DNA of 57,905 nt from Pseudomonadota bacterium (GTDB lineage Bacteria; Pseudomonadota; Alphaproteobacteria; Ferrovibrionales; Ferrovibrionaceae). Under the pieces are notes generated by a model that was given only the letters and a program-made list of their open reading frames with translations, made no database searches and was not told where the DNA came from. Positions 10,525 to 37,463 of this stretch are shown here, in pieces (positions within the stretch are counted from its first letter, which is position 1; every line of letters begins with the position of its first letter). A program made the position numbers and the translations under genes. The stretch covers positions 1 to 57,905 of the forward strand of contig JAEYTW010000741.1 in the NCBI GenBank assembly GCA_023433835.1. Reading direction: 5' to 3'.

Positions 10525-10540
10525 AAATGTAATTACATTT
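10525..10540. promoter_or_regulatory. perfect 16-bp palindrome AAATGTAATTACATTT (TGTAATTACA box 1); candidate operator or oriT inverted repeat
   Basis: Read directly. Lies about 50 nt upstream of the relaxase ATG in an AT-rich gap, followed by GGGTTATTGCGCGAG. Confidence 0.6.
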
Positions 10541-10630
10541 GGGTTATTGCGCGAGTAATATAGTTGTAGGTTTTTATTGTGTAACTTGCTGCATATCAAT
10601 GAATAAATTACGCTATCCGGGTCAATAGAA

Positions 10631-10644
10631 AAATGTAATTACAT
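10631..10644. promoter_or_regulatory. TGTAATTACA box 2 (AAATGTAATTACAT)
   Basis: Read directly. 16 nt upstream of the ATG at 10660. Same 14 nt as box 1. Confidence 0.6.
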
Positions 10645-10659
10645 CCGGAATACTCAAAA

Positions 10660-11505
10660 ATGGTCCAGGTGCCCACACGACGGCTGATCTCTCGCCAGCC
10701 TGCCGCGACGGATAATCCTCCGGATGCACAGGCGAAGGATCAGGCCATGCTCACAGCGGCTCACACGTCCCCGCAGCCCGATGAGCCCGATCTTGATTCG
10801 CCACCTCCTGATCTTGAGATCCCGCCCGACGACCAGCAGGTCGAACTCGAGACGCCTGAGGGAGATTGGGCGGTCGCGAACGCCAGCAGCGATCAGGCCC
10901 GCGGCTCCGCACCCCCGGTCACGAATCCGCCCGCCGCCACGGCTGAGCCGCGCCGGAGACGTGGGCGGCCTCCGGGCAGTGCGAACAAACCCAACGCCGA
11001 GAAACTGGAAGGCGGGGCCCGCGTCATTAAGACCGTCGACCACAAGGACCTGCAGCGTGCCAACGCTGCGATTGATCAACTGCGCCCCGTGCTTGATACG
11101 GCGGAGACCATGCTGGCCTCGGTGCCGGCGGGGGCTCACCATGCCGGCCTGCGGAAAGCAGCCAGGGGCGCGGTCGACCAGGCCAAGAAGCAGATTGCGA
11201 CGGCGACAGTTATGCGGGACCAGATCGTCGCGACGCTGGCAGAGCGCGAGCGCGAGCGCGAACGCGATCGGGTCGAGCGTGAGCGGGCCCGCAGACTGCC
11301 ACTCTTCACCGCTATCGGGGAAAAGGCGGTGGACCGCTTCGGGTTCACCCGCGAACTCGTCGATGAGATTGAGAAGCTTCTCGGCGATCTTTCACCCGAG
11401 CAATGCGCCGATTTCATCCGACGCGCGCTACTCGCTGCGGACTCGAATATCGCAGGTGCCGGGCTTATGGCTGCCGCGCCGTCGGGCGCCGACCCAACAG
11501 CCTGA
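10660..11505 (+). CDS. Pro-rich protein with an AT-hook-like motif and a charged coiled coil
   Basis: 281 aa. PRRRRGRPPGSANKP matches the AT-hook core R-G-R-P. Also contains an ERERERERDRVERERARR stretch. First gene of the plus-strand operon. Alternative ATG at 10747. Confidence 0.55.
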   Translation: MVQVPTRRLISRQPAATDNPPDAQAKDQAMLTAAHTSPQPDEPDLDSPPPDLEIPPDDQQVELETPEGDWAVANASSDQARGSAPPVTNPPAATAEPRRRRGRPPGSANKPNAEKLEGGARVIKTVDHKDLQRANAAIDQLRPVLDTAETMLASVPAGAHHAGLRKAARGAVDQAKKQIATATVMRDQIVATLAERERERERDRVERERARRLPLFTAIGEKAVDRFGFTRELVDEIEKLLGDLSPEQCADFIRRALLAADSNIAGAGLMAAAPSGADPTA

Positions 11506-11517
11506 TAGGAGTTGGCG

Positions 11518-11745
11518 ATGCCAATGCCGACGATCGAATGGTTGCTGCAGGTCGGGGTGTATGTGCTCCTCGGCGTCGGCGCTCTGTGGGCGCTTCAAAA
11601 ACTGAATTCGCTCCGACCCCAGGAATTTGATCCCGAGGAAGATCCGGGCCGCGACGAGGCCGATCGCGACGACACAGCCTCTCGGGATGAGCGTGACTCC
11701 GATGCCGCTGATCACCAGCCGGCGAGGCCCAGGAGGGACCCATGA
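11518..11745 (+). CDS. small membrane protein with an acidic tail
   Basis: 75 aa from the ATG at 11518 (RBS TAGGAG 7 nt upstream). One TM helix (LLQVGVYVLLGVGALWAL). Its stop overlaps the virB6-like start (ATGA). Confidence 0.5.
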   Translation: MPMPTIEWLLQVGVYVLLGVGALWALQKLNSLRPQEFDPEEDPGRDEADRDDTASRDERDSDAADHQPARPRRDP

Positions 11746-13268
11746 GCGAATGCCATATCTGCTCTTTCATCGCTCAACTCGAGGCGAAAGCAGATGTCTT
11801 CACGGCAGAAGTTGTTCGTGAGCTATCCGTATTTGCCGTGAATATCTGGCGCCCGATATTGGTGCTTTGGTTCGCGTCGGTCTGTGTTTTCATCTACTTC
11901 GGGCTGAAAAAATATGAGCCCGCAAAAATTGGCAATCGCGTGTTCCTGGCGGTCATCCTGTCGGCCTTGATCAGCTCGACGGCCGCGGGGACGGCGCAAA
12001 ATGACCCGACCCACAGCATCTACTGGAAGATGACACACGAGCTCTACAAGAAGGTCTCGGCGGGGGTGTCCTCCGCGATCCTTTCGATGGGCGGTGGCAT
12101 CGAAATTCCGGATCAATCAGCTGCGTTGGCTGGGGCGCCAGCGGTCTCGCTGTCGACCAATTCCTACCCGTTCACCAGGGTGTTCGGGGCGATGGAAAAC
12201 AGCGTCTGGAACATCATTGTGACTGGCATTGGGGCGATCTGGTCGAACCCTTCGGCCGCCACCAATACGGCTAACCAAAGCTGGTTCGTGAAGATGCTTG
12301 GCCTCCCCGGCATCCAGCAGGTGGTAAACGTCATCCAATCGATTTTGCTGCTTCTGCCCTACGTTTTTGTGATCGGGCTCTTCACCGCCTATATCGTGGA
12401 GAGCCTATTCATGTATCTCGCGACCACAATGGTCGCGCCGTTCCTTATGATCTGCGCCTTTTTCGATCCCCTGCGGCAAATCTTCATCACGGGGCTTCGG
12501 ATCTACGCTTCAGCCGCCCTGACCATCATTTTTGCGGCCATGGCGATGGGCTTCACGCTGTCCGTGTCGGCTGGATATTTTAGCGAGATCCAGTGTCTCA
12601 TCGTCAAGGAACCGACCATCACGCTCGCGAGCGGGAAAACAGCAACATGTTCGTCGGCGACGATCGCCCGCACCGACCCGGTCATCCTCAGCTACGAATA
12701 CTGGTCTGCGGTGCTGATCGGGTTTGCGTCCATTCTGCTGCACATCAAAGCCAAGACCCTCGCATCGAATTTTTCTGGTGCGTCTGATGGAGCTGGGCCC
12801 GCCGCCGCGGTCGTCGCCGCGACCAAGCTGGCGGTCGGCGGCGCGCTGGCAGCCGGGCTGAGCGCAGCGCGCCAACTGCCCGGCAATGCCCGAGACGCGG
12901 CTGGCCTCGGGATGCAGGCCGTGGGTGCCGCCACCGGCCGCCCCAACCTCATTTCCGCCGGCCGAGCGATCACGTCGACCAACCGCCAGAACTCGGTCGA
13001 CAATGTCGCCGCCCGAGCGATGGTCGCGCGCGGCAAATCCCCGACCGTCGCGGCGGCGATGTCGGATCTCCAGACGCCAGGCCGGTACGACACGTCGGCG
13101 GGGCGCGGTCGAACCGGTAATAGCGGGACGGCCGGCGCCGGAGGCGAGCCGGCCCAGCCGGGCGGTCAACGGCCTGCCCAAGACCAGCCCACAAGACGCC
13201 AGACGACGAACCAGGCGTACGAGGATCTCCGCGGAAACCGCGGGTCCGACGGATCTTATAGAACCTGA
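11742..13268 (+). CDS. virB6: VirB6/TrbL-like polytopic T4SS membrane protein
   Basis: 508 aa. At least 6 hydrophobic helices, then a long Gly/Ala/Gln/Pro-rich disordered C-terminal tail as in TrbL. Operon context with a VirB5-like gene. Confidence 0.65.
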   Translation: MSECHICSFIAQLEAKADVFTAEVVRELSVFAVNIWRPILVLWFASVCVFIYFGLKKYEPAKIGNRVFLAVILSALISSTAAGTAQNDPTHSIYWKMTHELYKKVSAGVSSAILSMGGGIEIPDQSAALAGAPAVSLSTNSYPFTRVFGAMENSVWNIIVTGIGAIWSNPSAATNTANQSWFVKMLGLPGIQQVVNVIQSILLLLPYVFVIGLFTAYIVESLFMYLATTMVAPFLMICAFFDPLRQIFITGLRIYASAALTIIFAAMAMGFTLSVSAGYFSEIQCLIVKEPTITLASGKTATCSSATIARTDPVILSYEYWSAVLIGFASILLHIKAKTLASNFSGASDGAGPAAAVVAATKLAVGGALAAGLSAARQLPGNARDAAGLGMQAVGAATGRPNLISAGRAITSTNRQNSVDNVAARAMVARGKSPTVAAAMSDLQTPGRYDTSAGRGRTGNSGTAGAGGEPAQPGGQRPAQDQPTRRQTTNQAYEDLRGNRGSDGSYRT

Positions 13269-13281
13269 ATAGGAGCCCGAC

Positions 13282-14013
13282 ATGTTGAAATATGTTCTGG
13301 CGGCCGTGTTGTGGCTCGCCGGCGCTACCGCCGCGGCGGCCCAAGGCTGCCCCGTCTTGGACCAGGCCAACTACGACAAGAACCTCGCGATTAGCGGCTT
13401 GGTCGATGACCAGTTGAAGAGCCTGCGGAACCAGCTGCTGTCGACGGAGAACATCGAGAAGGCGATCGGCGCCGCCGGCGCCGGCAAACTCAGCGGGATG
13501 ATATCGAGCCTGCCCGGCGTCGCTTCCGCCTGGTCTAAGCAAAACGCGAACGGTGTGATCGGCGGACTGCCGATCGACACGACCCGCTTGTCCTCGATCA
13601 CCCATCCGAGCATTCCAGCGGTGCCGGCCGCGAACTACGATTCGGCGGACCAGGCTGCAGCCTGGCTCAGGCAAGCGGTCTTTCTCACCCAGCGGAACGA
13701 CGCATATCCCGAGGCTGCGACGTCAGCAGTGGCCCGTCGGCGCGTCGCCGCGGTCGAGACCGCTGCCCGGGACGGCTATGCGGTGGCGGTTGCCGCCCGC
13801 AAGACGCAGGCCGAGACCGCGACACAACTCGCCAATGACCTGGGCGCCGCCGGCGATTTGGCGGTCAACGAGCGCGACCAGATCGCGGCACTGACCTTGG
13901 CTATGCTTGCCCTGCAGCGTGATATGGCCCAGGTGAAGCTCCTGCGGGCACACCAGCTCGAGATCGAAGCCGCCCGCGCCCTCGCGAGTTTGCCTCCGGG
14001 GGCTTCGCCATGA
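13282..14013 (+). CDS. VirB5/TrbJ-like secreted helical protein
   Basis: 243 aa. Signal peptide. The mature N-terminus CPVLDQANYDKNLAISGLVDDQLKSLRNQLL resembles the TrbJ/VirB5 start (V-x-D-x-A-N then a Gln/Leu-rich helix). Ala-rich helical remainder. RBS AGGAG. Confidence 0.5.
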   Translation: MLKYVLAAVLWLAGATAAAAQGCPVLDQANYDKNLAISGLVDDQLKSLRNQLLSTENIEKAIGAAGAGKLSGMISSLPGVASAWSKQNANGVIGGLPIDTTRLSSITHPSIPAVPAANYDSADQAAAWLRQAVFLTQRNDAYPEAATSAVARRRVAAVETAARDGYAVAVAARKTQAETATQLANDLGAAGDLAVNERDQIAALTLAMLALQRDMAQVKLLRAHQLEIEAARALASLPPGASP

Positions 14014-14780
14014 AGAAGTTGATCACGATGCTGCTGCTGGGGCTTGCCGCGTTGCCGCCGGACGCCGCCAACGCAGCATCTCAGGGCTGGTGCCAAGCGA
14101 CTTCGGCCGGGTCGGCTTCCGCGGTGTGCGACCAATCACCCGCCGCGGCTCCTCGCTGGTCGACACCTTTGGGCGAACAGCCTGACGACGGCTTTCGAGG
14201 CCTGCTGCTGCTGGCGGCCAAGTGCTACTGCCCGGGCACCACGCACGACGGCATGAATCTGGCGCAAGCCGGTGCGCAAGTGATATCGCGCAATGCGATC
14301 GGCCAGGCGAGCCGTACGCTCGAAACAGTGCTCGACCGGATCCGGATCACAGTCGGTACGCCCGGAGGCCATGGCGGCGCCTTTGCAAGCCTTGCGGCGA
14401 ACCCTTTGGCGATCGCCATGTCGTCGACCAGGCTGCCATCAACGGCTGTCGGCTGGCCACAGCCTCAGCAGCTCCTCGGCGCCCAGACGGAGTCAGCCGC
14501 CCGACAAGAAGTTGAGCGCCGCCAATCCCTGCGCGGCCGCGCAGCTCTTGACGCCCAGGCCCTCGCCTTGACCACCAGGCGCCAGGCTAAGCAGAGCGGC
14601 GGCCAGCGGCAGGCCCAGGTCGACCAGCTGGTGGACGCGGTTTCCAACCGTCGTGCAGACTGGCTTGCGCTCAACGCTGTTGTCTTGATGGCCCACGACG
14701 ATGCGACGGGCCTGGTCGGCCTCGAGGCTGCCGCGCTGGCGCTAACCGCGGCCAACGCCTTAGGCGAGGGCCGCCCATGA
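14010..14780 (+). CDS. secreted Ala-rich helical protein (possible VirB5 paralogue)
   Basis: 256 aa. Signal peptide MKKLITMLLLGLAALPPDAANA. Four Cys near the N-terminus, helical Ala/Gln/Arg-rich C-half. ATGA overlap with the upstream gene. Confidence 0.45.
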   Translation: MKKLITMLLLGLAALPPDAANAASQGWCQATSAGSASAVCDQSPAAAPRWSTPLGEQPDDGFRGLLLLAAKCYCPGTTHDGMNLAQAGAQVISRNAIGQASRTLETVLDRIRITVGTPGGHGGAFASLAANPLAIAMSSTRLPSTAVGWPQPQQLLGAQTESAARQEVERRQSLRGRAALDAQALALTTRRQAKQSGGQRQAQVDQLVDAVSNRRADWLALNAVVLMAHDDATGLVGLEAAALALTAANALGEGRP

Positions 14781-15403
14781 CCAGGACCATCACAGTCGGC
14801 TTGGCGCTCGCATTGCTGACCGCAGCGTCGCCCGCCAATGCATGCACGTGCTGCTTTTATGCGATCAACGATGGTGCGAACATCGCCGAACACGGCATCA
14901 CCATCGGTCATCTGACCAGCTTGGGACCTGTTCTTGACGGACTGGGAGACCGGCTCGTCGGGTGGAACATATCGCAGGGAGCAGCCTTCAAGGCGACCTG
15001 GTCCAGTGCCTTAGGCCAGGCAGTCTCCAAGATATCCAGCCTGAATCCGTCGACGCCGCTCGCCGCCTCGGCGTCGACGGTGCCGCAGATGCGCGACAAT
15101 GTTTCAAAGGAAGTTTTGGCAGGGTCATCGGCACCGTCGCCGCCGGCGGCGCCTGCTGCAGCTCAATTACGCATTGCCGCTATGGATGGCCAGGCGCTGG
15201 CGTTAGCCGTCCGGTCCGCCGCGGCGATGTCGCCGGCGGCCGTGACGGCGGCCGCGGGTGCGAACGACCCCGTGGTCGAAGACAGATCGGCGGCATTGGC
15301 GCGGCTGGGGGCCGCGATCATGGCCGCACGCGCCGAATTGTCAAGCGTCGTTGCTGTCGAAAGCGCCATCACGGAAATTCGAGCTCTACGCGCACTGCAA
15401 TGA
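14777..15403 (+). CDS. secreted Ala-rich helical protein (possible VirB5 paralogue)
   Basis: 208 aa. Signal peptide ending PANA|CTCC. FYAINDGANIAEH resembles the VirB5/TrbJ N-terminal motif. ATGA overlaps at both ends. Confidence 0.45.
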   Translation: MTRTITVGLALALLTAASPANACTCCFYAINDGANIAEHGITIGHLTSLGPVLDGLGDRLVGWNISQGAAFKATWSSALGQAVSKISSLNPSTPLAASASTVPQMRDNVSKEVLAGSSAPSPPAAPAAAQLRIAAMDGQALALAVRSAAAMSPAAVTAAAGANDPVVEDRSAALARLGAAIMAARAELSSVVAVESAITEIRALRALQ

Positions 15404-16962
15404 GATATCTCAGCCGCCTATTTCGGCCTGGTACTGCGCTTGGCGACGTTCGGCTAGCCGTCACTGCTCCACTTCACGACGCATCTGTTCGGGCCACGGC
15501 TCAGGCCCGCATCCTCCGAGGGCGCCTTAGCGTCTCGATCGCCTGGGGCGTGGTGAGCTCGGCGATAATGATGGACCTTGCCGCCGGATGGTGGCGGCTC
15601 CACCTCTGGCGGCCGAGCCACTGGCAATACATGTTGGAGCTCTGGCGCGGGGCTGGCATCCCCCACGAGGTATTTGTTTTCGTGCTGGCCTTCATCCTCC
15701 TGGTGTTCGGCGGCATGGTTATCCTGATGTTCGTGCCGAGCGAAAAAATCGCCTCGCACCTTCTTGGCTCCGACGATCCCCTGCTGGCCCTCGCGGAGCG
15801 GCTGAGGTCTTTCCGGAAAAAAGAAGGATCTGTCGGTCAGAATGTCCATGGGCATAGTCCCGGCGGCAAGATCGCCGGCAAGGCTGTGCCAGGCACCCAG
15901 CAATCGCCGGCATTGACCACGCCTCCGCCAGCCCCACCTCCGCAATCCTCGATCGCCGCCTCGGCGATAGCTGTTCCAGCTGCCCAGGCAGCGGCCGCGC
16001 CGCCACCAATTTCGCAACCGCCGATCAACTCGACAAAATCGCCCCAGCCTGCGCCACCGCCTCCGGCCGAACAGGCGCAGTCGCAGCAGATCACCGCTAC
16101 TTCAGGCCCGACTGGCAGCGAACTCGGGCTGGCAAGCATCCCTGAAATTGAACTGGAGGTCCCGCCCGACGGCCCAGACGAACTGGAACCGGAGGAGGTC
16201 GAACTGGAACCTCCGCCGGCTGCCGATTTCATGGAAAAATCGCCCGCCGCGCCGCCATTGGCACCGGTTGCCGCTGGAGACAGCGACGTGGAGCGCCGCG
16301 GCGATGTGGTGGCCGCGGTGAAAGATATGATCGGGGCAGCGGCCGAAGGAATGTTCGCCGGCGCACGCTGGATTTTCAGCACGCCGGCTTCTCGCTCCAT
16401 ATGTGGCACGCTTCAGGTGGATTATGTTCTGGCCTGCGACGATAACGAGGCGGGCGCCATCGTATTCTATCTCGTCATTCCGGTGGTCGGTGCCGGCGCG
16501 CTGCAGCGGCGGCCCTCGGTGCAACTCGTGCCTCGGGATGATTCGGAATGGTACCGCGGCGATTGGCGAATAATCCGGGCGGGCCAACCGACGCGACATC
16601 TCGGCGAAATCGAACTGGCCAGCGTCACCATGGCCAACGAATTCGCTGACTTGGTCGATGGGCGCCTGGGTGATCGTGTCGTCGCCGTGATGCCTCTGAT
16701 AATCATCGCCGACGCGGCGTTATCATCATCCGAGCGGCCGCTTCCCGAGATCGAGAAGGAGGGGCTGGGCGTTTTCCTCTTGTCTCAACCCGATAGCGAG
16801 GTCGACGTCCTCCGCCTCGAGGATTGGGTCGCGTCAACCTTTGGTGATAGCCCAGATATAATCTCGGCGCCGGCCGACGACGTGCTGCGCGACTGGACCT
16901 CGCGGGACGGTATCGAGTGGGAGGTTCTTGCCGGTCCGATATTCGAGGGCTGGCAGCCTTAG
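15400..16962 (+). CDS. membrane protein with a Pro-rich linker and an unknown C-terminal domain
   Basis: The track ORF 14962..16962 overlaps the previous gene. The ATG at 15400 overlaps that gene's TGA (ATGA) and gives 520 aa: two TM helices, a PPPAPPP.../PQPAPPPP linker, an acidic stretch, and a globular C-terminus (ICGTLQVDYVLACDDNEAGAIVFYLVIP...). Confidence 0.55.
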   Translation: MRYLSRLFRPGTALGDVRLAVTAPLHDASVRATAQARILRGRLSVSIAWGVVSSAIMMDLAAGWWRLHLWRPSHWQYMLELWRGAGIPHEVFVFVLAFILLVFGGMVILMFVPSEKIASHLLGSDDPLLALAERLRSFRKKEGSVGQNVHGHSPGGKIAGKAVPGTQQSPALTTPPPAPPPQSSIAASAIAVPAAQAAAAPPPISQPPINSTKSPQPAPPPPAEQAQSQQITATSGPTGSELGLASIPEIELEVPPDGPDELEPEEVELEPPPAADFMEKSPAAPPLAPVAAGDSDVERRGDVVAAVKDMIGAAAEGMFAGARWIFSTPASRSICGTLQVDYVLACDDNEAGAIVFYLVIPVVGAGALQRRPSVQLVPRDDSEWYRGDWRIIRAGQPTRHLGEIELASVTMANEFADLVDGRLGDRVVAVMPLIIIADAALSSSERPLPEIEKEGLGVFLLSQPDSEVDVLRLEDWVASTFGDSPDIISAPADDVLRDWTSRDGIEWEVLAGPIFEGWQP

Positions 16963-17696
16963 CGCTGCACGGCAGGCAGGTGCTGAAAATCGGCATACCG
17001 GTCGGCGACGCTGGCCATATAGGGAATCGCTCGCGAGGGGTCGGACGAGTGATATCGACCGACCGCCTTTTGCCACGACCCAGTTTCGCGCGCCAGCTGG
17101 CGCAGAAATGCCCCGGCATAATCGGCATTCCAGGCCGGATCGAACAGTTCGACCAGGCTTGGCAGCGATTGCCGATGCCAGGGGATGCTGATCTGCATGC
17201 AGCCACCATCGATCGACCTGGCCCCAGAAGCGGCTGCAGCGTGAACCCGTTTCGCGGCGCTGAGGAGATCAACGGGGAATTCGGCTCGGCCGTCAATATT
17301 TAGAGCATAGGGATGACCTGCCTCGACGCCGGCGATCGCTAATAGGAGGCCGGCCGGAATCCCGTGCTTCAGCTCGGCGGCATTCACCGCCTTCCGACAT
17401 GAAGCCGAGATGGCTGTCCGCTCGATCATTGTGCCAGTCGCGCGCCTGGCGCTCGTCCGCGTCGGCGCCGGGGGTGATGGGGATGGCCGTTCGGCCCGAC
17501 GCCTGGCGTGCTGATCTTCGAGCCTGGGGGCGGTAGCGGTATCCACAAACCCCGGCTCGCCAAAGATCGTCCTCGATGAGCGTGAATCTGCTCTCACAGG
17601 TCCTATAGCCATTGCAATGGGGGTCATAAGACCGATAACAGCGCCGAAGCGCCATAGCAGATCCCAGATCCCCCATTGAGACTTCGTCAACGCCAT
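16959..17696 (-). CDS. virB1: VirB1-like lytic transglycosylase (SLT domain)
   Basis: 245 aa. Signal/TM N-terminus. SLT motifs GLLLAIAGVEAG, GGCMQISIPWH and AVGRYHS. Confidence 0.75.
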   Translation of the reverse strand: MALTKSQWGIWDLLWRFGAVIGLMTPIAMAIGPVRADSRSSRTIFGEPGFVDTATAPRLEDQHARRRAERPSPSPPAPTRTSARRATGTMIERTAISASCRKAVNAAELKHGIPAGLLLAIAGVEAGHPYALNIDGRAEFPVDLLSAAKRVHAAAASGARSIDGGCMQISIPWHRQSLPSLVELFDPAWNADYAGAFLRQLARETGSWQKAVGRYHSSDPSRAIPYMASVADRYADFQHLPAVQR

Positions 17697-17883
17697 ATGC
17701 CCGTCTACCTACCCCGTGAGGCCCCTTGTCTACGATGCCACGGCCCCCGTCTACCGTCGATGTCGCTCATATTTGGACATTTCTACCGCGAAACCCCACC
17801 CCGAACGCAACTTTTCACCGATGCATCTAATCCAACCCATTGATGCTGCTACATAACCTAATCACTAGATGGAGGCAGGATAC

Positions 17884-17905
17884 GCGATTTGTAATTACAA
17901 ATCGC
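17884..17905. promoter_or_regulatory. perfect 22-bp palindrome GCGATTTGTAATTACAAATCGC (TGTAATTACA box 3)
   Basis: Read directly. Lies in the AT-rich part of the 333-bp gap between virB1-like (divergent) and mobC. Confidence 0.6.
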
Positions 17906-18029
17906 CACATTGCCGGTGACAGGATAGCAACAAGTTGTAGACTATAGTTCAGCACCATGGATCGACCCGCATTGAGGCGCTGATAGAGAACCGCCACGAC
18001 GCCTAGGGGTAGCCGGTTCAAGAATAGGG

Positions 18030-18419
18030 GTGGGGACGGTGCCGGCGGCACGAAGAGCACAAATCTTTCAGATGAGGGTGACGCCGGCGGAGCGGGTCGC
18101 TTTCAAAGCCCAAGCTCGGGCCGAAGGCCTAGCCACCTCGGCCTGGATCCGGTCGCTCGCGGTCGCGCGGTGCAACGGCCTGACCGCGCTGTCGAAGGAC
18201 GAAAAATCTGCGCTCAACAGCGCCACAACAGAGCTGAACAAGGCTGGCGTTAATCTGAATGCCCTGCTTCACGAGGCGCGGCTCGCGGCGATCGACGGCA
18301 AGGCATTGCCTTGGCAGATGCGCGAGCAATACGAGAAGGTCCTCGTCGAGCTTCGTGATGCCGTCGCTGGCGTGCGGGCCACCGTTGGCACCATTTCGAA
18401 GCGTCGCCGAAATGGCTGA
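18030..18419 (+). CDS. mobC: MobC-family relaxosome accessory protein
   Basis: 129 aa. RHH-like FQMRVTPAERVAFKAQARAEGLATSAWIRSLA, then TELNKAGVNLNALLHEARL (equivalent of the GNNLNQ motif). 8-nt overlap with the relaxase start. GTG start is uncertain. Confidence 0.75.
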   Translation: MGTVPAARRAQIFQMRVTPAERVAFKAQARAEGLATSAWIRSLAVARCNGLTALSKDEKSALNSATTELNKAGVNLNALLHEARLAAIDGKALPWQMREQYEKVLVELRDAVAGVRATVGTISKRRRNG

Positions 18420-20076
18420 CGGCGACGCCCAAGATCGTGACGAAGAACGGTCGCGGCGGCGCCTACGCCGCAACCGGGATGACGAACGCGCCCTGACCGC
18501 GCTCGTGAGACGTTCCCGCATAATTATTGGCCGGTCATCATCTGATCATGGCCTTCGGCCAGGCGGGTACGCTCGCGGCGGCAATAGGCCGATATCCTCT
18601 CCAGCCCAGCAGTCGTCAAGCTCAAGGCCAGGGGGAAGCCGGGAAACTGTCGTCAAGGCCCTGAGCTGGACGAAATCTCGCCGCGGCGCGCGGCAGCTGC
18701 TGCGTTATCTCGCCCGCGAGCGCGACAGCGACCGCGAAGCGGGGACGAGGCCTGTAATGCTTCGCGATGCCCTTGGGCGCTCATTCTCGTGCAGCCGGGC
18801 TTTGTCCCTTGTCGATCAGGAATATCAGCTCCTGGATGACAAGGACAATATCGCGAAGCGGCATCGGGATAAATCGCCGGCAGAGCTGCGAGCGCTACCG
18901 GAAAAGGACCGGCTCGCGCGTCGGCAGGCGGCACACCTGGCAGTTTCCATCAAAGCGACCAGTCCCGAGGATTTTGGGCGGTTGGAAATTGCCGTGGGTG
19001 AGTGCGTCGCCTCGGAATTCGCTTCGACAGAAGGCCGCTTCGCCGGTTTTCCCGTTTTCTGGGCCTTGCACGACGACCACGGTGCGCGACCTCACGCGCA
19101 TCTGGTGGTCGGCACGTCGCAACTGCCTGGCTTCGCGAACGGTGGTCGGGCTCGGTCTCTTCGGCTTGGGCCGGATGACCTCGAATTTCTGCGTCAGGAA
19201 ATTACGACACGTCTCGTCTCTATGGGCGTCGACGTCATCGCGACCCGGAAGTGCGACAGACCTGAATGGCGGCGCGATTTAATCGACGGCCGCGTGGCGG
19301 AACTCGAATCTTCCGAGCGGGTAAAAAAGGGCAGGCAGCGTGATTCCGCGGGGGTGGTCGCGCCCGGTCTGGACCGATTGATCGTTAAACGCGCGCCGAA
19401 ATATGCAGCGAAATATGCCGACGAGATGTTGCTCCGCGAATATCGAACGCGGGTCGATGGCCCAGATATTGGCAACCCAAAAAAGCAAACTGTGGCGCCC
19501 AGTAATCCGCCCAACAGACTTCTTGGCGGCGATGATCTGGTGCGCGCTTTATACGGCGATGAGGCACCTGCCGCGCGAGCACGAATTGTCGAGCTGGCGT
19601 CCGAAGCCGACGACGAGCTAGCGCTCTGGTTGATGAGAAATCGGCCGAAGGTCTTTGGCCGGCCGGTTGGGGACCCCGCCGAAATTGTGCCGGAGCGTGC
19701 CGGCCGGCGACCGCGTCGCCTGGTCTGGTCGGAGACAATGACCGAAACCGACGATGCGGTGATCCTGAGCCCGGCCGACCGGGACCGGATCACCGCCCAG
19801 GTACGTCGCATCGGCCTCGATCGGCGCCGCGAGGCACTGGTCGACCGGACGGCCGTTGAACTTGAACGGGTAGCAACCCGGGTGGCAAACGAAGCCGACG
19901 ACGAATACGTCGAGCTGGCGGGCGGCGTCCGGTCCGTCAAACAGCGATTCTTGGAATCTGCGATGCAGGGGCAGCGCGCTGCTCCAGTCGCCGGCCTGCC
20001 CGCGGCCGGCGGAAATCAGCGCATCGTCGATAACCCGCGCGAGAGAGACGCGGGGCAGCGGGATCGAGAGCGGTAA
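18412..20076 (+). CDS. relaxase/mobilisation nuclease (VirD2/MOBP-like histidine motif)
   Basis: The ATG at 18412 overlaps the mobC stop; the track start at 18259 lies inside mobC. Motif WALHDDHGARPHAHLVVG = HxDx(5)HxH. About 554 aa with an Arg-rich C-terminus. Confidence 0.75.
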   Translation: MADGDAQDRDEERSRRRLRRNRDDERALTALVRRSRIIIGRSSSDHGLRPGGYARGGNRPISSPAQQSSSSRPGGSRETVVKALSWTKSRRGARQLLRYLARERDSDREAGTRPVMLRDALGRSFSCSRALSLVDQEYQLLDDKDNIAKRHRDKSPAELRALPEKDRLARRQAAHLAVSIKATSPEDFGRLEIAVGECVASEFASTEGRFAGFPVFWALHDDHGARPHAHLVVGTSQLPGFANGGRARSLRLGPDDLEFLRQEITTRLVSMGVDVIATRKCDRPEWRRDLIDGRVAELESSERVKKGRQRDSAGVVAPGLDRLIVKRAPKYAAKYADEMLLREYRTRVDGPDIGNPKKQTVAPSNPPNRLLGGDDLVRALYGDEAPAARARIVELASEADDELALWLMRNRPKVFGRPVGDPAEIVPERAGRRPRRLVWSETMTETDDAVILSPADRDRITAQVRRIGLDRRREALVDRTAVELERVATRVANEADDEYVELAGGVRSVKQRFLESAMQGQRAAPVAGLPAAGGNQRIVDNPRERDAGQRDRER

Positions 20077-20097
20077 TGACTAGAACAGTCAGCGTGC

Positions 20098-20124
20098 CGG
20101 CGGTGGTGGCCGCCGCGCATTTTT
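20098..20124 (+). terminator. putative intrinsic terminator after the relaxase gene
   Basis: Stem CGGCGG / CCGCCG with a 6-nt loop, followed by CGCATTTTT. Confidence 0.45.
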
Positions 20125-20182
20125 CAGACAGATAGCAACGCGGCGAGAAGCATGCCGCGGCCGTATTAGCGAGGGGGCTAGG

Positions 20183-25667: not shown

Positions 25668-25676
25668 AGGGGGCGG

Positions 25677-26334: not shown

Positions 26335-26350
26335 TTTCAGCCGGGACCGG

Positions 26351-27049: not shown

Positions 27050-27144
27050 TAGTCAGGCATCCGGTCATCCCGGCAGATCAATAGGCAGATGAAACTGAAC
27101 TAATTCTGCTACTGTTCATTTTTCAAAATCGGAACCTCTGGCCC

Positions 27145-27570: not shown

Positions 27571-27583
27571 GAGCCACCAGATT

Positions 27584-28861
27584 TTAGGTGGCCTTGATGA
27601 CCGGCAGCTCGTCAAACCTCGTCGTCCAGCGCGGCGATCGCCGTTCGGCCTGCTGCTGCCAGGTCCGACGCAGCCCGGTCGAAGCGATCCTGATCGTCTC
27701 TCTCCCCCAGTCCCGGTTGATGCGGTCGATCGCTGACATCAGAGCTGCCGATCGTGGTCGATCGCGGTCGACCAGCAGCGAACGCTGTTCACGCCCGGCC
27801 GGCACCAAGTCGGTCATCATGACACCCGCCTTGGAATATCGATGTCCGTCGCGCCAGCAGCTGGCGCCGGCGGCGACGGCCGCGGCGACCAGATCGCGAC
27901 TGTCGGCGCAGGCTTCCGGCAGGGTCATGGTCCTGCTCGCGGAATAGGGCGCATCGTACGGGCGGAATCGCGAAGTGTGCATGAAAACGGTCATCGCCGC
28001 ACCGACGACCCCATGACGACGCATCCGTTCGGCCGCGCGCATGGCGTAGCTGGCCAGCGCCTCGCGCATCGTTGGCCAGTCGGTAACGGGCCGGCCGAAC
28101 GACCTGGTCACCGCGGTCCCCTGGCGCGTCGGCGCGACGTGCTCGAGGGCCAGGCAGGACTGGCCGCGAAGCTCCATAGCGATCCTCGCGCCGACGATTG
28201 TCAGGACCTGCCGGGCGCGGTTGATGTCCAGGCCGGCCAGGTCGGCCGCGGTGCGCACGCCCAGCAGCTGGAGCTGGGCCGCGTAGGCCGGCCCGACACC
28301 CCAGACGTCACCGACGTCGATCGTGGGCAAGATCTCTGCCCGGGCTGCCGGATCGCGCAGATCGCAGACGCCGGCGAGCTCCGGCCGCCGTTTCGCAACG
28401 CGGTTGGCGACCTTGCTCAGCACCTTGGTCGGCCCGATGCCAATGCAGGTCGGTATGCCCACCCACTGCCGCACCTGGGCCCGTATCTCGCGGGCCCGGG
28501 CTACCAGGTCGCCGGGGACGTCGGTGAAGTCTAGAAAGCTCTCATCGATCGAATACTCCTCGACCGCCGGCGCCATGTCGCGCAGCACCGCCAGCACCCG
28601 GCGGCTCAGGTCGCCGTAGAGCTCATAGTTCGACGACATCACCACTACCTTGTGGGCGCGGCAGAGGTCACGAATCTGGAATAGCGGCGCCCCCATCTGG
28701 ATGCCCAATGCCTTGGCCTCGGCCGAGCGCGCGACCGCGCAGCCATCGTTGTTGCTCAAGACGATGACCGGTCGGCCTTCCAGGCGAGGCTGAAATACTC
28801 GTTCGCACGAAACATAGAAGTTGTTGCCGTCGCAGAGGGCGAAGACCGGCGCGCCCATCAT
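27584..28861 (-). CDS. umuC: Y-family translesion DNA polymerase UmuC
   Basis: 425 aa. [48 protein letters not shown]. 4-nt overlap with umuD. Confidence 0.9.
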
Positions 28862-29295
28862 CCGGCCTGGCGCAGCGAATGGATGACGTGGACGACGACA
28901 CCCCAGATCGTCAACTCGGCCCCCTCGGTCAGCGCGATCGGCTTGCCGGCCGGCGGATCGGACTGCAGCAGGATCTGGGGCCCGCGGCGAACCAGGCGTT
29001 TGCAGACCAGGTCGCCGTCAAGGATCGCTACAACGACGTCACCATTTCCCGGGCGCATCGACCGGTCAACGACGCCAAGATCTCCCTCGTGGATGCCAGC
29101 CCCCACCATGGATGAGCCGGCAAAGCGTACATAGAACGTCGCAGCGGGGCGCCGCACCAGGTGCTCCGACAGGTCGAGCGGCACTTCCTCGTACTCGGCC
29201 GCCGGCGACGGAAACCCGCAGGCGACGACGGCGCTGTAGCAGGGTAGCGCCGGCAGGTCTTCGAGCGGGTCGGTGATCAGAACGACGCGGCACAT
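28858..29295 (-). CDS. umuD: UmuD (LexA-like S24 peptidase)
   Basis: 145 aa. [28 protein letters not shown] (catalytic Ser), VCKRL (Lys). Confidence 0.85.
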
Positions 29296-32741: not shown

Positions 32742-33080
32742 TTAGGGGTCTTTGCGTTTGGCTTTCGAGCGTGCCAAGCGGACACCAACGCCGCCGGCAT
32801 GGTCGTCAACCAAGAACTGCAGCCCTTCGCGCTCCATCGTCTCCTGGATTGCTGCCAAATTGGTCGCCCGCAGCCGCGGTACGCCGTCGGCACGCGCAGC
32901 GCGCGTGACGGTTGCCTCCCCCAGCCCGCACGCTTCGGCGAGCTGCTGGTGGGTCCAACCGAGGGCAACCAACCCCATGCGGATATGCAGTCCAGTGAGC
33001 ATGCGCGCACTGTGCCCGAATGACTGGCGCGGCGCCACTGCCGATTGCCTACCCCGCATATGTGATCGTCCATCCATCAT
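32742..33080 (-). CDS. HTH (XRE-like) DNA-binding protein
   Basis: 112 aa. GWTHQQLAEACGLGEATVTRAARADG. The C-terminal EREGLQF..GVGVRL resembles the ORF at 36179. Preferred over the overlapping 32501..33073 ORF. Confidence 0.6.
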   Translation of the reverse strand: MMDGRSHMRGRQSAVAPRQSFGHSARMLTGLHIRMGLVALGWTHQQLAEACGLGEATVTRAARADGVPRLRATNLAAIQETMEREGLQFLVDDHAGGVGVRLARSKAKRKDP

Positions 33081-33593: not shown

Positions 33594-34157
33594 ATGAGGA
33601 AGATGATGAAGAAGTCGATGGCATGCTTCGCCCTTGCAGCAGCGACAGCCTGGGGATGGTTCATGTGGCACTGCGAGCACGTCCTGGCCCAGGCAGCATT
33701 TCAGCCGGGGGCAACCTACCAGACATGTTTTACCCCGCAGGACGATTGCGAAAGCATGATCGTTGGCGCCATCGGCGCAGCGCAGCAACAGATCCTCGTG
33801 CAGGCCTATAGCTTTACGTCGCGCCGCATCGCCGCCGCGCTTGTGAGCGCGAAGCAGCGGGGCCTAGACGTTGCGGTGCTGCTCGATGACGGTCAGCGGA
33901 CGGACCGCTATTCCCAGGCCAGCACGTTGCGGAAAGCGAACATCCCAATTCTGGTCGACGACGGCACCTCCAATGGTCATGCCCATTCCAAGGTGATGGT
34001 TCTCGACAATGCCGTGCTGACCGGGTCGTACAACTTCTCGGCCTCGGCACAGCGCCGCAACAATGAGAACATCATCCTGATCAAGGGGGATGACAGACTC
34101 ACAGCGCAGTTCACGGCGAATTGGAAAGCTCGCCGCGAAGTCTCGAGGCCCTATTGA
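33594..34157 (+). CDS. nuc: phospholipase D-family periplasmic endonuclease (Nuc-like)
   Basis: 187 aa. Signal peptide. HKD motif GHAHSKVMVLDNAVLTGSYNFSASAQRRNNEN. Size and architecture match plasmid Nuc (pKM101 type). Confidence 0.85.
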   Translation: MRKMMKKSMACFALAAATAWGWFMWHCEHVLAQAAFQPGATYQTCFTPQDDCESMIVGAIGAAQQQILVQAYSFTSRRIAAALVSAKQRGLDVAVLLDDGQRTDRYSQASTLRKANIPILVDDGTSNGHAHSKVMVLDNAVLTGSYNFSASAQRRNNENIILIKGDDRLTAQFTANWKARREVSRPY

Positions 34158-34537
34158 TGCCTGCAGGACCCATCATCATGTCAGAGCGGAAAACAGTCGA
34201 CCCGATAGTTACCTGGCGGGAGCTGACAGAGGATCAGAAAGAGAAGATCGGGACCGCGTGTATCGCGTTGGTCTTGGGGTTGCTCGGCACCATGCAGCAG
34301 ATGGCGCCGCGTCAGGGATTTTTTGCTGCCGAGGTCGAAGGGCTTCAGCTCGCCGCGGACGCGCTGGCCGAGGCTGCGCCTAGCGCCTTCGTCGAAGGGG
34401 CTGCACGGCTACCGGATCTTGGTGTGCTGGGGGTTCGTGCCTGCCGTGAATGCGGCTGTACCGACCAGTGCGGTTGCGACGTCCAATGTCATTGGGTTGC
34501 CGACGACCTTTGCTCAAGTTGCAGGGGAGCAGGATAG
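34157..34537 (+). CDS. small Cys-rich (putative zinc-binding) protein
   Basis: The ATG at 34157 overlaps the nuc TGA (TGATG). C-terminus CRECGCTDQCGCDVQCHWVADDLCSSC. Confidence 0.5.
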   Translation: MPAGPIIMSERKTVDPIVTWRELTEDQKEKIGTACIALVLGLLGTMQQMAPRQGFFAAEVEGLQLAADALAEAAPSAFVEGAARLPDLGVLGVRACRECGCTDQCGCDVQCHWVADDLCSSCRGAG

Positions 34538-34576
34538 AACCTTGCCGTCGGCTCGTTCGCAGGCTGACGGTGTGGC

Positions 34577-34768
34577 TCACCAGGCCTGGAAGTATGACCT
34601 GCCCTGGCGGGCACGATGCCGAGCCACCGCAGCGTCGAATTCAGGCGAATGCCTACCGGGGGTCGCCGCCGGATTGGTTTTGCGCGCCTTGATTTCGGCA
34701 AGGAGTTTCTCGGCTTCCGCCTTGAACGGATTGACCTGAGAGGCAGTCTCGTTCGAATTCATGGTCAT
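34577..34768 (-). CDS. small hypothetical protein
   Basis: About 63 aa from the ATG at 34768 (GGAGCG 5 nt upstream). Helical KAEAEKLLAEIKARK. Weak evidence. Confidence 0.3.
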   Translation of the reverse strand: MTMNSNETASQVNPFKAEAEKLLAEIKARKTNPAATPGRHSPEFDAAVARHRARQGRSYFQAW

Positions 34769-34836
34769 TGATCGCTCCGACATCGTCAGATCCTTGATTC
34801 TATCCAACGGAGAATCCACCTCCAACTAAAATCAGA

Positions 34837-34863
34837 CCAATGATAGGATTTTCATCCTATTGG
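34837..34863. repeat. imperfect hairpin in a low-GC patch at the ligase truncation boundary
   Basis: CCAATGATAGGAT-TTTC-ATCCTATTGG with one bulged base. Confidence 0.35.
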
Positions 34864-35026
34864 TGAATTTCAATTTGTCTCTTCGAATTTTGCTCGAGTA
34901 GAGGTCCGTCGGACCGACCACCAGCGGATAGGAACACGCTTTAGGAGCTGGGAACCGTCAGTCGAAATACCAGTTGAATCGCCGCTTTTGCGGAGGCCTA
35001 CGACATGAGAAAGAAGATCAAGGCCG

Positions 35027-35746
35027 ATGCCACGACGCCGGCTATGGACACAAGGCATCAGCAGGATGTCGTTGCTGAAGGAGGCGCTCCAAGAGCCCGA
35101 TCCGACGCAGATCATCGGCCAGTGTTTCGACCTGTTATGGCTTAACGGGGAAGATCTTCGGCCCAAGCCCCTGGTCGAGCGGCGAACGGCGTTGCAGCGG
35201 CTTATCGGACCCGACCGGCCGCGCATCCGCTTCAGCCACGCGCTCGAGACGAACACCTCGGCCGAGATGTTCGCGAAAGCCTGCGAAATGGGTCTCGAAG
35301 GCATCATGGTCAAGAACGAGGCCTCGCCCTATCGGTCAGGTCGGCAGAAGTCCTGGTGCAAGGTGCGGTGCCAAGAAGCCCTGGATTTCATCGTCGTTGG
35401 CTATTTCCTGGCTGCGAACGACCCGAGTGCGGTCGGATCGCTTATACTCGCCGCTTACGACGATGTCGGCATGCTGCGCCGCGTCGGCAGCGTGGGCACG
35501 GGGAGGACACCGGAAGCAGCGAGAGATCTACGCCGGCGCCTGGAAAATCGGAAGACCAGCCGGAACCCGTTCCGTGAGCTGCCGCGGGATCGCGGCGTCC
35601 AGTACCTCGAGACGGTGACAGTGGCAGAGGTGGCGACGCGGGGGTGGCTCGGCGGTGAGCTGCGACATGCATCGTTCCGCGGTTTGCGGGACGATAGGCC
35701 GGCGCGCCAGGTGCTTTTGGAACGGCCGGGCGATCGCCGGCGCTGA
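35027..35746 (+). pseudogene. 5'-truncated ATP-dependent DNA ligase (LigD ligase-domain remnant)
   Basis: Contains motifs FDLLWLNGEDLRPKPLVERR, GLEGIMVKNEASPYRSGR, SWCKVRC and the OB-domain part (FIVVGY...GSLILAAY). The adenylation lysine motif (KxDG) and everything N-terminal to it are missing. In-frame stop at 35006-35008. Confidence 0.6.
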
Positions 35747-35760
35747 CCATTGCCGGCGGC

Positions 35761-36120
35761 CTACCGGGCCAGAGCTTGGCGATCGATCGGGCCAGGCGCA
35801 GCGGTGGGTGTCGGCAGGACATGCTTACGGATCAGCACCTCGAGCTCGTCGAGGGCGGCGGTGTAGGCGGCCTGGTAGTGCTCTGCAGGGCTGTCGCCCT
35901 CGTTGATGGCCATCTGGGCCAGGCACAGTGCGATCGCCGCGCGGCCGACGGCCTCTTGCGTTTGCGATGTCAGGCCGCGCCAGCTATCTGCGATTGGAAT
36001 CGGGGCGGGCGCGTCACAGGGTGAGCCAACTGAAATATTCTTTTTAGGTCTCATGACAGCGATTATATAGCCGGTAGCATTCATATTCGATCTTAAGAGC
36101 TTCAAAATCGCTAATGGCAT
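35761..36120 (-). CDS. hypothetical protein
   Basis: 119 aa ORF divergent from the HTH gene. A shorter start (MRPKK) is possible. Confidence 0.35.
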   Translation of the reverse strand: MPLAILKLLRSNMNATGYIIAVMRPKKNISVGSPCDAPAPIPIADSWRGLTSQTQEAVGRAAIALCLAQMAINEGDSPAEHYQAAYTAALDELEVLIRKHVLPTPTAAPGPIDRQALAR

Positions 36121-36178
36121 GATCTTGCTGGAGAAATCGGCCGTTGCTTGAACGAACTTCGGTCGCTAAAGCCGCCCG

Positions 36179-36439
36179 ATGCGGGGACCACAGGTCAGGG
36201 CGGCGAGGGAGTTGCTGGGTATGAGCCAGCAGGACCTGGCTGCACGCGCCGACGTGTCGGTGTCGACGGTGCGAGACATCGAGAACGGCACGGGAGACCC
36301 GCGGCGTTCCAGCATCGAGGCGATCGAGGATTTCCTGATCAGCCAGGGAATTCGGTTCGTCCAGACGCCGGGTGTCATCGGAATGCCGTTGACCACTCCC
36401 CGAGGTCAGGCTTCATCGATCGACGACCGGGACGACTAG
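36179..36439 (+). CDS. XRE-family HTH regulator
   Basis: 86 aa. LRGPQVRAARELLGMSQQDLAARADVSVSTVRDIENG. Convergent 4-nt overlap with the recombinase gene. Confidence 0.75.
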   Translation: MRGPQVRAARELLGMSQQDLAARADVSVSTVRDIENGTGDPRRSSIEAIEDFLISQGIRFVQTPGVIGMPLTTPRGQASSIDDRDD

Positions 36440-37440
36440 GCGCGGCCCTGCAGCCGGGCCAGGTCGGCCATTGCCGACCGTTCGATCTCGATGTCCTCGA
36501 GATAGGGATGGAGAGAATCGGCGTGCTTGCGCCTCTGCGCCTGCAGCACGCCGGCAAGGTTCATGTTGTTGGCGACCATCTCTTGCGCAGCGCCCACCCG
36601 AAACGAATGGCCGCTATAGCCGTCCCCCAACTCGGCGGCCGCGGCCAGGCGCTTGGCCGTGTAGGAAAGCCCGCGCGAGCTTAGCCGTGGCCCGACATTC
36701 CCCCACCGGTCGATCGACCGGAACAGAGCACCGTCGACCAGCTTCGCTGCTTGGCACCAGGCGTCGATCGCGACCATGGTGTCTCGCGCGATGAAAACGC
36801 GCTCTCTTCGTCCGAACTGGTCAGTCTTGCTCTGCGCAATCAACGCGCTTCCGTTGCCGTTCGCTGCCGGCGAAATGTCATCGATGTCGAGCGCCATCAG
36901 CTCTGATTGCCGAGCGGATAGGTCGTAGGCGAGTAGCGTCATTGCCCGATCGCGAAGGCCTCGCAGGGACGTGTCAGTTGTCCCGTGCATCAAGGTGATG
37001 TGGTTGAGCCAGGCGCCCCGTGCATGCCGCTTTCGTTTGCCCAGCGCGCGGGCAACTCGCTTCATTGCCAGGCCGACGTCGGCAATTGAAGTCGGCGACG
37101 GCAATTTTGCGGCCAGGTGGAGCCGGGCGATCGCCCACACTCGCGTCTGGATCGTCGTAAAGCGGTGCTGGGTGGCCAGGTGGTCGATGTAGTCGACCAC
37201 AACCTCCCAGCGCGCCGGCACCGCCGGCGCCTGCCTCGTGGCAGCGAACGAGATCCATCGTTTTAATCCGGTGATCCACGCGGCCAGTGTGTTGCCCGCG
37301 GCGACACCGCGCGACGCCACAAGGTATTGCGCGTATCGGGCGCAGAGCTCCTGATCGCCGCCAGCGGCGATGTTCAGCAATCGGCGCAACACCTCGGCCG
37401 GGTCTTTGGCAACCTGCTTATGTTCACTTTCAGCGGTCAC
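36436..37440 (-). CDS. rci: tyrosine site-specific recombinase, predicted shufflon recombinase (Rci-like)
   Basis: 334 aa. Catalytic-region motifs LSARQSELMALDIDDI (Arg), GHSFRVGAAQEM (HxxR), and a C-terminal LHPYL Tyr. Immediately adjacent to the inverted-repeat cassettes at the pilV 3' end. The tyrosine recombinase call is firm (0.9); the Rci role is inference. Confidence 0.8.
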   Translation of the reverse strand: MTAESEHKQVAKDPAEVLRRLLNIAAGGDQELCARYAQYLVASRGVAAGNTLAAWITGLKRWISFAATRQAPAVPARWEVVVDYIDHLATQHRFTTIQTRVWAIARLHLAAKLPSPTSIADVGLAMKRVARALGKRKRHARGAWLNHITLMHGTTDTSLRGLRDRAMTLLAYDLSARQSELMALDIDDISPAANGNGSALIAQSKTDQFGRRERVFIARDTMVAIDAWCQAAKLVDGALFRSIDRWGNVGPRLSSRGLSYTAKRLAAAAELGDGYSGHSFRVGAAQEMVANNMNLAGVLQAQRRKHADSLHPYLEDIEIERSAMADLARLQGRA

Positions 37441-37453
37441 CGATGAACCGACT

Positions 37454-37463
37454 TGTAATTACA
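37454..37463. promoter_or_regulatory. TGTAATTACA box 4, just upstream of the recombinase start
   Basis: Read directly. Lies 14-23 nt upstream of the start at 37440. The flank TGTAATTACATAATCGC resembles box 3 (TGTAATTACAAATCGC). Confidence 0.55.

Follow-up and report, generated by a model that had tools for sequence, protein, structure and literature searches.

The contig JAEYTW010000741.1 (assembly GCA_023433835.1, assigned to the alphaproteobacterial family Ferrovibrionaceae), whose full 57,905 nucleotides are referred to below as the window, represents a conjugative plasmid-like replicon in which a single 10-base palindrome, TGTAATTACA, recurs at four intergenic positions. This palindrome may well be the binding box of one plasmid-encoded, sequence-specific protein, most likely a NikA-like ribbon-helix-helix (RHH) relaxosome accessory protein, a reading to which a probability of roughly 0.5 can be assigned. 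Two NikA-like dimers would occupy the box, one on each of its inverted WTGTAA hexads. In two places the box would form the centre of the inverted repeat of an origin of transfer (oriT), where the bound protein would help the relaxosome to assemble, while at the other two it stands alone before the AT-hook/VirB6-like operon and before the recombinase gene rci, where the bound protein would most likely repress. A preliminary description of this DNA had proposed one regulator for DNA processing, part of the type IV secretion system and the shufflon. That proposal still fits the data, but boxes 1 and 3 appear to be more than operators, as they lie at the centres of putative oriT repeats with a nick motif 8-9 nt away.

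Occurrence and conservation of the box

Four exact copies of TGTAATTACA are present in the window, against 0.01 expected from dinucleotide-preserving shuffles, and all of them are intergenic. Copies with one mismatch are absent from the window, and the only copy with two mismatches falls in coding DNA, a number within chance. The fourfold and exclusively intergenic recurrence had previously been judged improbable by chance, which these counts bear out; the contrary outcome considered at that time, a similar density throughout and in coding DNA as well, is not what was observed, with no exact or one-mismatch copy in coding sequence of the window. The genes downstream of the boxes are mobA, the AT-hook operon, nikA and rci, and comparison was made with variants of the plasmid, including one about 93% identical that is deposited as a metagenome-assembled genome (MAG) of Aliihoeflea sp., an alphaproteobacterium. 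The four copies are:

10528-10537, no strand assigned: box 1, core TGTAATTACA, unchanged in variants L010 and L011
10634-10643, no strand assigned: box 2, bare, 16 nt before the AT-hook-protein/VirB6-like operon (ATG start)
17890-17899, no strand assigned: box 3, within a longer palindrome
37454-37463, no strand assigned: box 4, bare, 13 nt before the Rci-like recombinase gene (GTG start)

The palindrome is the sole A+T-rich 10-mer found repeated in the window and the sole repeated motif within its approximately 4.5 kb of intergenic DNA. All eight half-sites of the four boxes read WTGTAA. Outside the boxes, lone half-sites (WTGTAAT) are not enriched, with one found against about 2.4 expected, which indicates that the whole palindrome is the functional unit. 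In the 7.2 kb of the source scaffold that follow, TGTAATTACA was not found again. The flank motif TAATCGCGG showed no enrichment, and the pattern GCAGGATAN{1,8}TTGTAATTACAA, searched in genome contigs, gave 15 matches, all of them in unrelated A/T-rich taxa and at about chance level. When the literature was searched for the 10-mer, the RelB operator was the sole relevant match, a paper on DriD having used the sequence only as an arbitrary oligonucleotide.

In the variant plasmids, which are 92.7% identical overall, all four boxes are unchanged. Among 704 intergenic positions, 41 vary between the variants and none of these falls within the 40 box positions (P = 0.084), an invariance that is consistent with constraint but not decisive alone. 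The variants do break the perfect 22-mer that surrounds box 3 (at 17886) and the AATCGC extension of box 4 (at 37468), so that neither of these additions is essential. The extension, which had been described as common to boxes 3 and 4, is accordingly present in the window but not conserved, the changes at 37468 and 17886 affecting its two copies.

Two classes of box can be distinguished, with a stable hairpin in the predicted transferred strand at boxes 1 and 3 only. At both of these the repeat is followed by a nick motif 8-9 nt on, which suggests that both are probably oriTs. Boxes 2 and 4 have unrelated flanks and no arms, and folding revealed no hairpin at either (z = 0.02 and z = 0.57, respectively). 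Their distances from start codons had been given as 16 and 14 nt; the first is correct for box 2 and the ATG at 10660, but box 4 lies 13 nt from the GTG at 37440. At such distances a bound protein would overlap the core promoter or a very short leader, making repression the simplest reading and the most likely mode of action at these two boxes. Consensus promoter scans placed no promoter at boxes 2 and 4. The sequence from box 2 through the ATG is unchanged in the variants despite three substitutions within 7 nt to its left, and box 4 is unchanged in variants L012 and L013 despite a substitution 5 nt away.

Two predicted origins of transfer

Box 3 is probably the centre of a MOBP/IncI1-type oriT. 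The features concerned are listed below, with a slash marking the predicted cut here and throughout:

17884-17905, no strand assigned: perfect 22-mer palindrome GCGATTTGTAATTACAAATCGC, which holds box 3; inverted repeat of the proposed MOBP/IncI1-type oriT
17875-17882, minus strand: nick region TATCCTG/C (TATCCTGC), cut predicted between 17876 and 17875, in the minus-strand context GCGATTTGTAATTACAAATCGCGTATCCTG/CCTCC
18039-18419, plus strand: NikA-like RHH relaxosome accessory protein, 126 amino acids (aa), PF21983 (E = 4e-9); best candidate reader of the box
18757-20076, plus strand: MOBP-like relaxase, 439 aa as called, with homologues that carry PF03432 and the histidine motif HDDHGARPHAH in its translation

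The 22-mer had been described as a perfect palindrome, and this was upheld. Read on the minus strand, it is followed by a single G and then by TATCCTG/CC, so that 8 nt separate the repeat from the predicted cut, and the nick region fits the MOBP consensus (C/T)ATCCTG(C/T) (PMC3772185). Folded as single-stranded DNA, the minus strand at box 3 forms a hairpin of -9.0 kcal/mol (z = -4.25). As the nikA-like gene (18039) and the relaxase gene (18757) are on the plus strand and the nick is on the minus strand upstream of them, both genes would be transferred last. The relaxase itself has no Pfam match at E <= 0.001, and its assignment follows its few homologues, which carry the PF03432 Relaxase domain.

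The arrangement of nick site, repeat and genes at box 3 is the same in plasmid R64 (IncI1) and in L003 and L030, the loci from other metagenomes that hold the two nearest relatives of the relaxase (34-40% identical). In R64, as in the window, the nick motif, the nick-proximal repeat, nikA and the relaxase gene (NikB in R64) follow one another in that order, with the repeat again 8 nt away from the cut. The layout GGCAGGATA-C-[inverted repeat] found at box 3 recurs before the NikA-like genes of L003 and L030 and at the oriT of R64, which reads GACAGGATG-T-GCAATTGTAATA...TATTACAATTGC in the plasmid record and lies upstream of nikA. The corresponding sequences are GACAGGATAC-GCGTTTTGT-GGCC-ACAAATCGC in L030 and GGCAGGATAT-GGCGTTTGT-GGGT-ACAAACGCC in L003. 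The arms are kept in these relatives (GCG[A/T]TTTGT ... ACAAATCGC), while the central four bases are AATT in the window, GGCC in L030 and GGGT in L003, indicating that the arms are a conserved feature of the family and that the centre is free to differ. Among the origins compared, the AATT centre appears only in this plasmid, and it is this centre that would create the box. No convincing second copy of its own oriT core was found in the 13.8 kb of L003. In every respect that can be judged from sequence, box 3 would thus agree with an oriT of R64/MOBP type, the class of the relaxase excepted.

Several observations were made around this locus. The 337-bp G+C-rich gap between the nikA-like gene and the called relaxase start (18420-18756) is in frame with the relaxase open reading frame (ORF), and an alternative start at 18412 would add a low-complexity Arg/Ser-rich N-terminus, so the called gene may be too short. 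A second TATCCTG occurs on the minus strand at 17920-17926, where it precedes the oriT repeat of the nicked strand by 14 nt. The repeat is thus located between two direct copies of TATCCTG, both of which the variants conserve. In the window as a whole this heptamer is over-represented, with nine copies found against three expected.

Box 1 is probably part of a second oriT, of the MOBQ type, a working role suggested by the following features:

10513-10553, plus strand: extended inverted repeat at box 1, comprising the perfect 20-mer CCAAATGTAATTACATTTGG (10523-10542) and imperfect outer arms; proposed MOBQ-type oriT repeat
10543-10552, plus strand: putative MOBQ nick region GTTATTGCG/C, cut predicted after 10551, in the plus-strand context CCAAATGTAATTACATTTGGGTTATTGCG/CGAGTA
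8328-10475, minus strand: MobA/MobL (MOBQ) relaxase, PF03389 (E = 1e-21), about 27% identical to Ti-type TraA

A palindrome had been recognised at box 1, but the length of 16 bases assigned to it was too short for what is a perfect 20-mer. As single-stranded DNA the plus strand here folds with -16.3 kcal/mol (z = -6.0), and a 78-nt block (10503-10579) shows no change in the variants, whereas the 184-nt spacer that contains it varies at 14 positions elsewhere. The repeat before traA in pAgK84 has GTAAGTGCG/C after it, with which the GTTATTGCG/C of box 1 agrees in eight of ten bases and in its offset from the repeat; eight of ten bases likewise match the RSF1010 nick site, TAAGTGCG/CCCT (PMC4814116). 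RSF1010/Ti-type MOBQ origins resemble box 1 in having an inverted repeat followed after 8-9 nt by ..T.TGCG/C beside a MobA/MobL gene, with the relaxase gene transferred last. The same polarity is predicted in the window, where mobA lies to the left of the repeat on the minus strand and the plus strand carries the nick-like motif. Unlike the conserved MOBQ nick core, ..AAGTGCG/CCCT or TAATTGCG/CCCT, box 1 has GTTATTGCG/CGAG, with CGAG in place of CCCT 3' of the cut, and its nick-like sequence is included in the larger palindrome. The octamer ATTGCGCG at 10546-10553, which is not enriched across the window as a whole, belongs to the outer arms of this palindrome and is consequently mirrored on the minus strand at 10513-10520, so that nicking of either strand at box 1 may be possible.

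Where the MobA/MobL gene starts is uncertain. Its product resembles TraA only from about residue 115 of the 715-residue call onward, and an alternative start (MSHSY) is present at 10292; with this start the spacer holding boxes 1 and 2 would measure 367 bp instead of 184 bp.

The two predicted origins nick opposite strands and face each other (10552-17875). With either relaxase, the leading region would therefore be the 7.3-kb AT-hook/VirB6-like operon that separates them.

Candidate readers of the box

The NikA-like protein is the only RHH protein that Pfam detected in the window. Its PF21983 match scores 36.8 bits against a curated cut-off of 27, and a weak VirD1 match was also obtained. Its RHH segment, a beta-strand and two helices, aligns with R64 NikA, and the protein carries LNKAGVNLNALL, which fits the motif of the MobC/NikA clade described for RA3 MobC (PMC4175270). 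A PDB search by sequence failed to bring up NikA. The single-sequence AlphaFold model of the NikA-like protein was poor, with a predicted local distance difference test of about 50 in the RHH segment, and was set aside.

The oriT repeat of R64, GCAATTGTAATA, corresponds to GCGATTTGTAAT in the window, where it occupies the same place relative to the nick site (at box 3 only), and R64 has TTGTAAT where the window has it. The site expected for the NikA-like protein at oriT thus takes in the box. According to Furuya and Komano, NikA reportedly binds this repeat. The NikA site has been marked on the R64 oriT (PMC4743918). The residue two before the invariant Arg, on the DNA-facing beta-strand, is Lys where the repeat centre begins with GG (L030 and L003) and Gln or Thr where it begins with AA (the window and R64; n = 4), a pairing that would be expected if this residue reads those bases. 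RHH proteins are able to read sequences of this kind, as E. coli RelB does with [A/T]TGT[A/C]A hexads, one of its sites being the perfect palindrome TTGTAATTACAA (PMC2812701). The relO operator of relBE has this 12-mer in common with the window and is read by RelB as two inverted [A/T]TGT[A/C]A hexads (PMC2812701); unlike the boxes it is a toxin-antitoxin operator, and the likeness points to a capacity of RHH proteins and not to homology. A dual role has precedents as well. RHH accessory proteins are known to double as repressors (PMC4175270; PMC6514445), and RA3 MobC, the RHH accessory protein of a MOBP relaxase, represses its own promoter via a palindrome (PMC4175270).

Several points weigh against this reading. 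The conservation of the boxes across variants is statistically marginal (P = 0.084), and the covariation of residue and repeat centre comes from only four sequences. The 12-mer oriT repeat of R64 is found nowhere else in the 81 kb of R64 examined, so that the model plasmid gives no precedent for additional NikA sites at promoters. Boxes 1, 2 and 4 lack the GCGATT arms that relatives keep at oriT, which suggests that the NikA-like protein may need more than the 10-mer. At box 1, CCCT is missing after the predicted cut, where known MOBQ origins have it; the nick-like motif is also contained in the outer stem and present in mirror image on both strands, and the MobA/MobL relaxase beside it is distant from characterised ones. 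The sole weak promoter-scan match, near box 1, is destroyed in the variants. Finally, the AATT centre of the box would also suit the AT-hook protein encoded beside box 2.

The candidate binders named in the preliminary description, namely XRE, MucR and AT-hook proteins, are indeed encoded in the window, but the best-supported one, the NikA-like RHH protein, had been omitted. Among the others, the AT-hook protein is the strongest rival:

10660-11505, plus strand: AT-hook protein, 281 aa, first gene downstream of box 2, AT-hook RRRRGRPPGS; rival candidate binder

It is rather unlikely, though worth consideration, that this protein is the binder, dimerising through its helical hairpin and placing its AT-hooks in the narrow minor groove of AATT. 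An extension of this idea, in which it regulates its own operon via box 2 and, perhaps jointly with the NikA-like protein, serves as an architectural factor for the two origins and rci, appears equally doubtful. The AT-hook is canonical, and the hook and the helical C-terminal part are conserved while the acidic, proline-rich N-terminus is variable. In the structural model the N-terminus is disordered, and a long helical hairpin is predicted with confidence. The start codon lies 16 nt past box 2, as is usual for self-regulated genes, and the gene is located beside a predicted MOBQ-type oriT, the position in which accessory genes are found on the Ti and RSF1010 plasmids. This lineage alone has the protein, and it alone has AATT at the centre of the oriT repeat. 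On the other hand, an AT-hook by itself recognises A/T tracts with low specificity and leaves the invariant TGT...ACA flanks unexplained, the structural model predicts no further DNA-binding fold, and there are no homologues for comparison, as an exhaustive HMMER search of 1.84 billion representative proteins matched only the protein itself.

More unlikely still is a binder among the XRE helix-turn-helix proteins (36221-36439, 51555-52016 and 32742-33059), the MucR/Ros zinc-finger protein (27145-27570) or host factors. DNA-binding proteins of both families are encoded in the window and the XRE gene at 36221 abuts rci. In addition, MucR has a preference for A/T-rich DNA, and TTGTAATATA is part of the Ros box in Agrobacterium. 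Nevertheless, the half-site centres of the box are 5 bp apart, a poor fit for a helix-turn-helix dimer, and MucR/Ros proteins target degenerate A/T-rich stretches and not four identical 10-mers. No such gene adjoins a box, and comparative support is lacking for this group.

The box could also be without a common binder, the A/T-rich palindromes serving local melting or cruciform formation at the origins and having been copied elsewhere by chance or recombination. AATT would then be a hairpin loop in the transferred strand at boxes 1 and 3, and relatives do use other loops. This appears improbable, given that boxes 2 and 4 form no hairpin and that the four 10-mers are identical and unchanged in the variants, with unrelated flanks and no degenerate copies. 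Four identical and sharply defined palindromes are hard to explain otherwise than by one sequence-specific protein. A relBE-type toxin-antitoxin operator was considered as well and rejected, no RelB/RelE-like family having been found by Pfam among the ORFs scanned.

The remaining alternative concerns the recombinase gene that follows box 4 and the shufflon beside it:

36436-37440, minus strand: Rci-like tyrosine recombinase, PF00589, downstream of the shufflon
37619-38479, no strand assigned: shufflon, with 19-nt repeats TAAACCGCTTTATTGCGAT in direct orientation at 37619-37637 and at 37899-37917, plus a third, inverted one at about 38460-38479

As in R64, pilV, the shufflon and rci follow one another in that order, and the inverted copy of TAAACCGCTTTATTGCGAT lies inside the 3' end of the pilV-like gene. 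Alternative C-terminal ORFs of pilV are present on the plus strand at 37527-37850 and 37942-38220. In the Aliihoeflea MAG variant L012 (8952-9534), the segment 37896-38479 is inverted with respect to the window. The element holds a working shufflon outside Enterobacteriaceae. It had been suggested that the 8-6-8 layout which can be read into the 22-mer at box 3 resembles a tyrosine-recombinase core site. The reading of the boxes as core sites of the Rci-like recombinase is rejected here as extremely unlikely even though the Rci-like gene follows box 4, given that the shufflon repeats TAAACCGCTTTATTGCGAT, the expected Rci sites, differ from the box, that the variant inversion lies between these repeats while no rearrangement between boxes is seen in the variants, that arms are present at boxes 1 and 3 only, leaving boxes 2 and 4 bare, that box 3 is accounted for as an oriT-type repeat, and that the AATCGC extension is not conserved.

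Plasmid context and biological meaning

The window is identical to a 71-kb ENA metagenome scaffold over the stretches compared (approximately 43 kb), and its gene content is that of a conjugative plasmid-like replicon, with the following gene sets:

within the window: VirB-like channel genes, identified with Pfam
within the window: R64-like thin-pilus cluster, ending in pilV, shufflon and rci

Other genes of the window encode MucR, UmuDC, a histidine kinase and response regulator, topoisomerase III and a 4122-residue methylase-helicase. The region 22292-29295 holds a PAS histidine kinase with a stand-alone receiver protein, a SprT-like metalloprotease, umuDC and the full-length MucR/Ros regulator (27145-27570). 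Between the leading-side genes and rci (33594-35746), where gene content varies between variants, a PLD-family nuclease gene is accompanied by a short ORF for an ATP-dependent DNA ligase, of 239 aa in the window and 330 aa in variants L012 and L013; the transfer region of R64 also has a PLD-family nuclease gene. The topoisomerase III gene (52716-55097) adjoins the single 4122-residue ORF, with N6-methyltransferase and helicase domains, that spans 55110-57905 and runs past the end of the window (locus L004, 1-9988).

The element is almost without relatives in public data. Megablast of positions 8000-20500 against PLSDB gave no matches. With tblastn, only MobC matches of about 28% identity were obtained for the NikA-like protein, only TraA matches of about 27% for MobA, and none for the AT-hook protein. 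Protein scans likewise gave no matches for the relaxase in genome contigs or for MobA in metagenome contigs, and a word-indexed protein search returned five matches for the relaxase and a single 99% variant for the NikA-like protein. As a consequence of these sparse results, comparison is limited to the variants of about 93% identity and to three distant origins.

Among well-studied systems, R64, whose oriT combines a nick region with repeat A, is close in organisation, sharing with the window a NikA-family RHH accessory protein and a thin-pilus gene set followed by pilV, shufflon and rci. The two differ in that the arms of the oriT repeat are 16 bp apart in R64 but abut as a perfect 22-mer in the window, in that the repeat is confined to the oriT in R64 whereas the core in the window is also found at the MOBQ-type origin and before two genes, and in that the mating channel is VirB-like in the window and Dot/Icm-like in R64. 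The role proposed for the NikA-like protein resembles that of RA3 MobC, R388 TrwA and F TraY, small RHH proteins that are encoded beside oriT and bind a palindrome or repeat both there and at a promoter. Unlike what is proposed for the window, the targets in known cases are the protein's own operon or the main tra promoter, and to our knowledge no RHH accessory protein is known with identical boxes in two origins of different families or before a shufflon recombinase gene. KorA and KorB of IncP plasmids offer another parallel, with one short palindrome repeated at several promoters of a conjugative plasmid and one protein coordinating them; the window differs in having only four sites, two of them inside the predicted origins, and no KorA, KorB or ParB-like protein was identified in it. 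RHH accessory proteins have been found to couple DNA processing to the expression of transfer genes (PMC4175270; PMC6514445).

On a conservative reading, the window gains two annotated oriTs, both predicted, and a working shufflon outside Enterobacteriaceae. The copies of the box before the channel operon and before the shufflon recombinase gene are new. The use of one box at the core of two origins whose relaxases belong to different families would be new as well, and so would the facing orientation of these origins, by which the 7.3-kb operon between them would lead transfer from either; the link to rci and the core common to two relaxase families are the unusual parts. It is proposed tentatively, as a possibility with the odds against it, that one accessory protein reads the box at the MOBQ and MOBP origins, at the promoter of part of the channel and at the rci promoter, so that occupancy of the relaxosome would set both the expression of the channel and the switching of the pilus-tip adhesin. 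In one version of this proposal, the NikA-like protein would occupy the TGT/ACA major grooves and the AT-hook protein the AATT minor groove. For this uncultured alphaproteobacterial plasmid, the findings predict two nick positions, four binding sites and one pairing of residue and base (Gln with AA, Lys with GG). If the proposal is true, the plasmid would have a compact circuit, not described for model plasmids, in which one accessory protein serves two unrelated relaxases and gates part of the channel and the shufflon recombinase. Such a circuit would show how one plasmid keeps two origins compatible, and by way of pilus-tip switching it would couple the initiation of DNA transfer to recipient choice.

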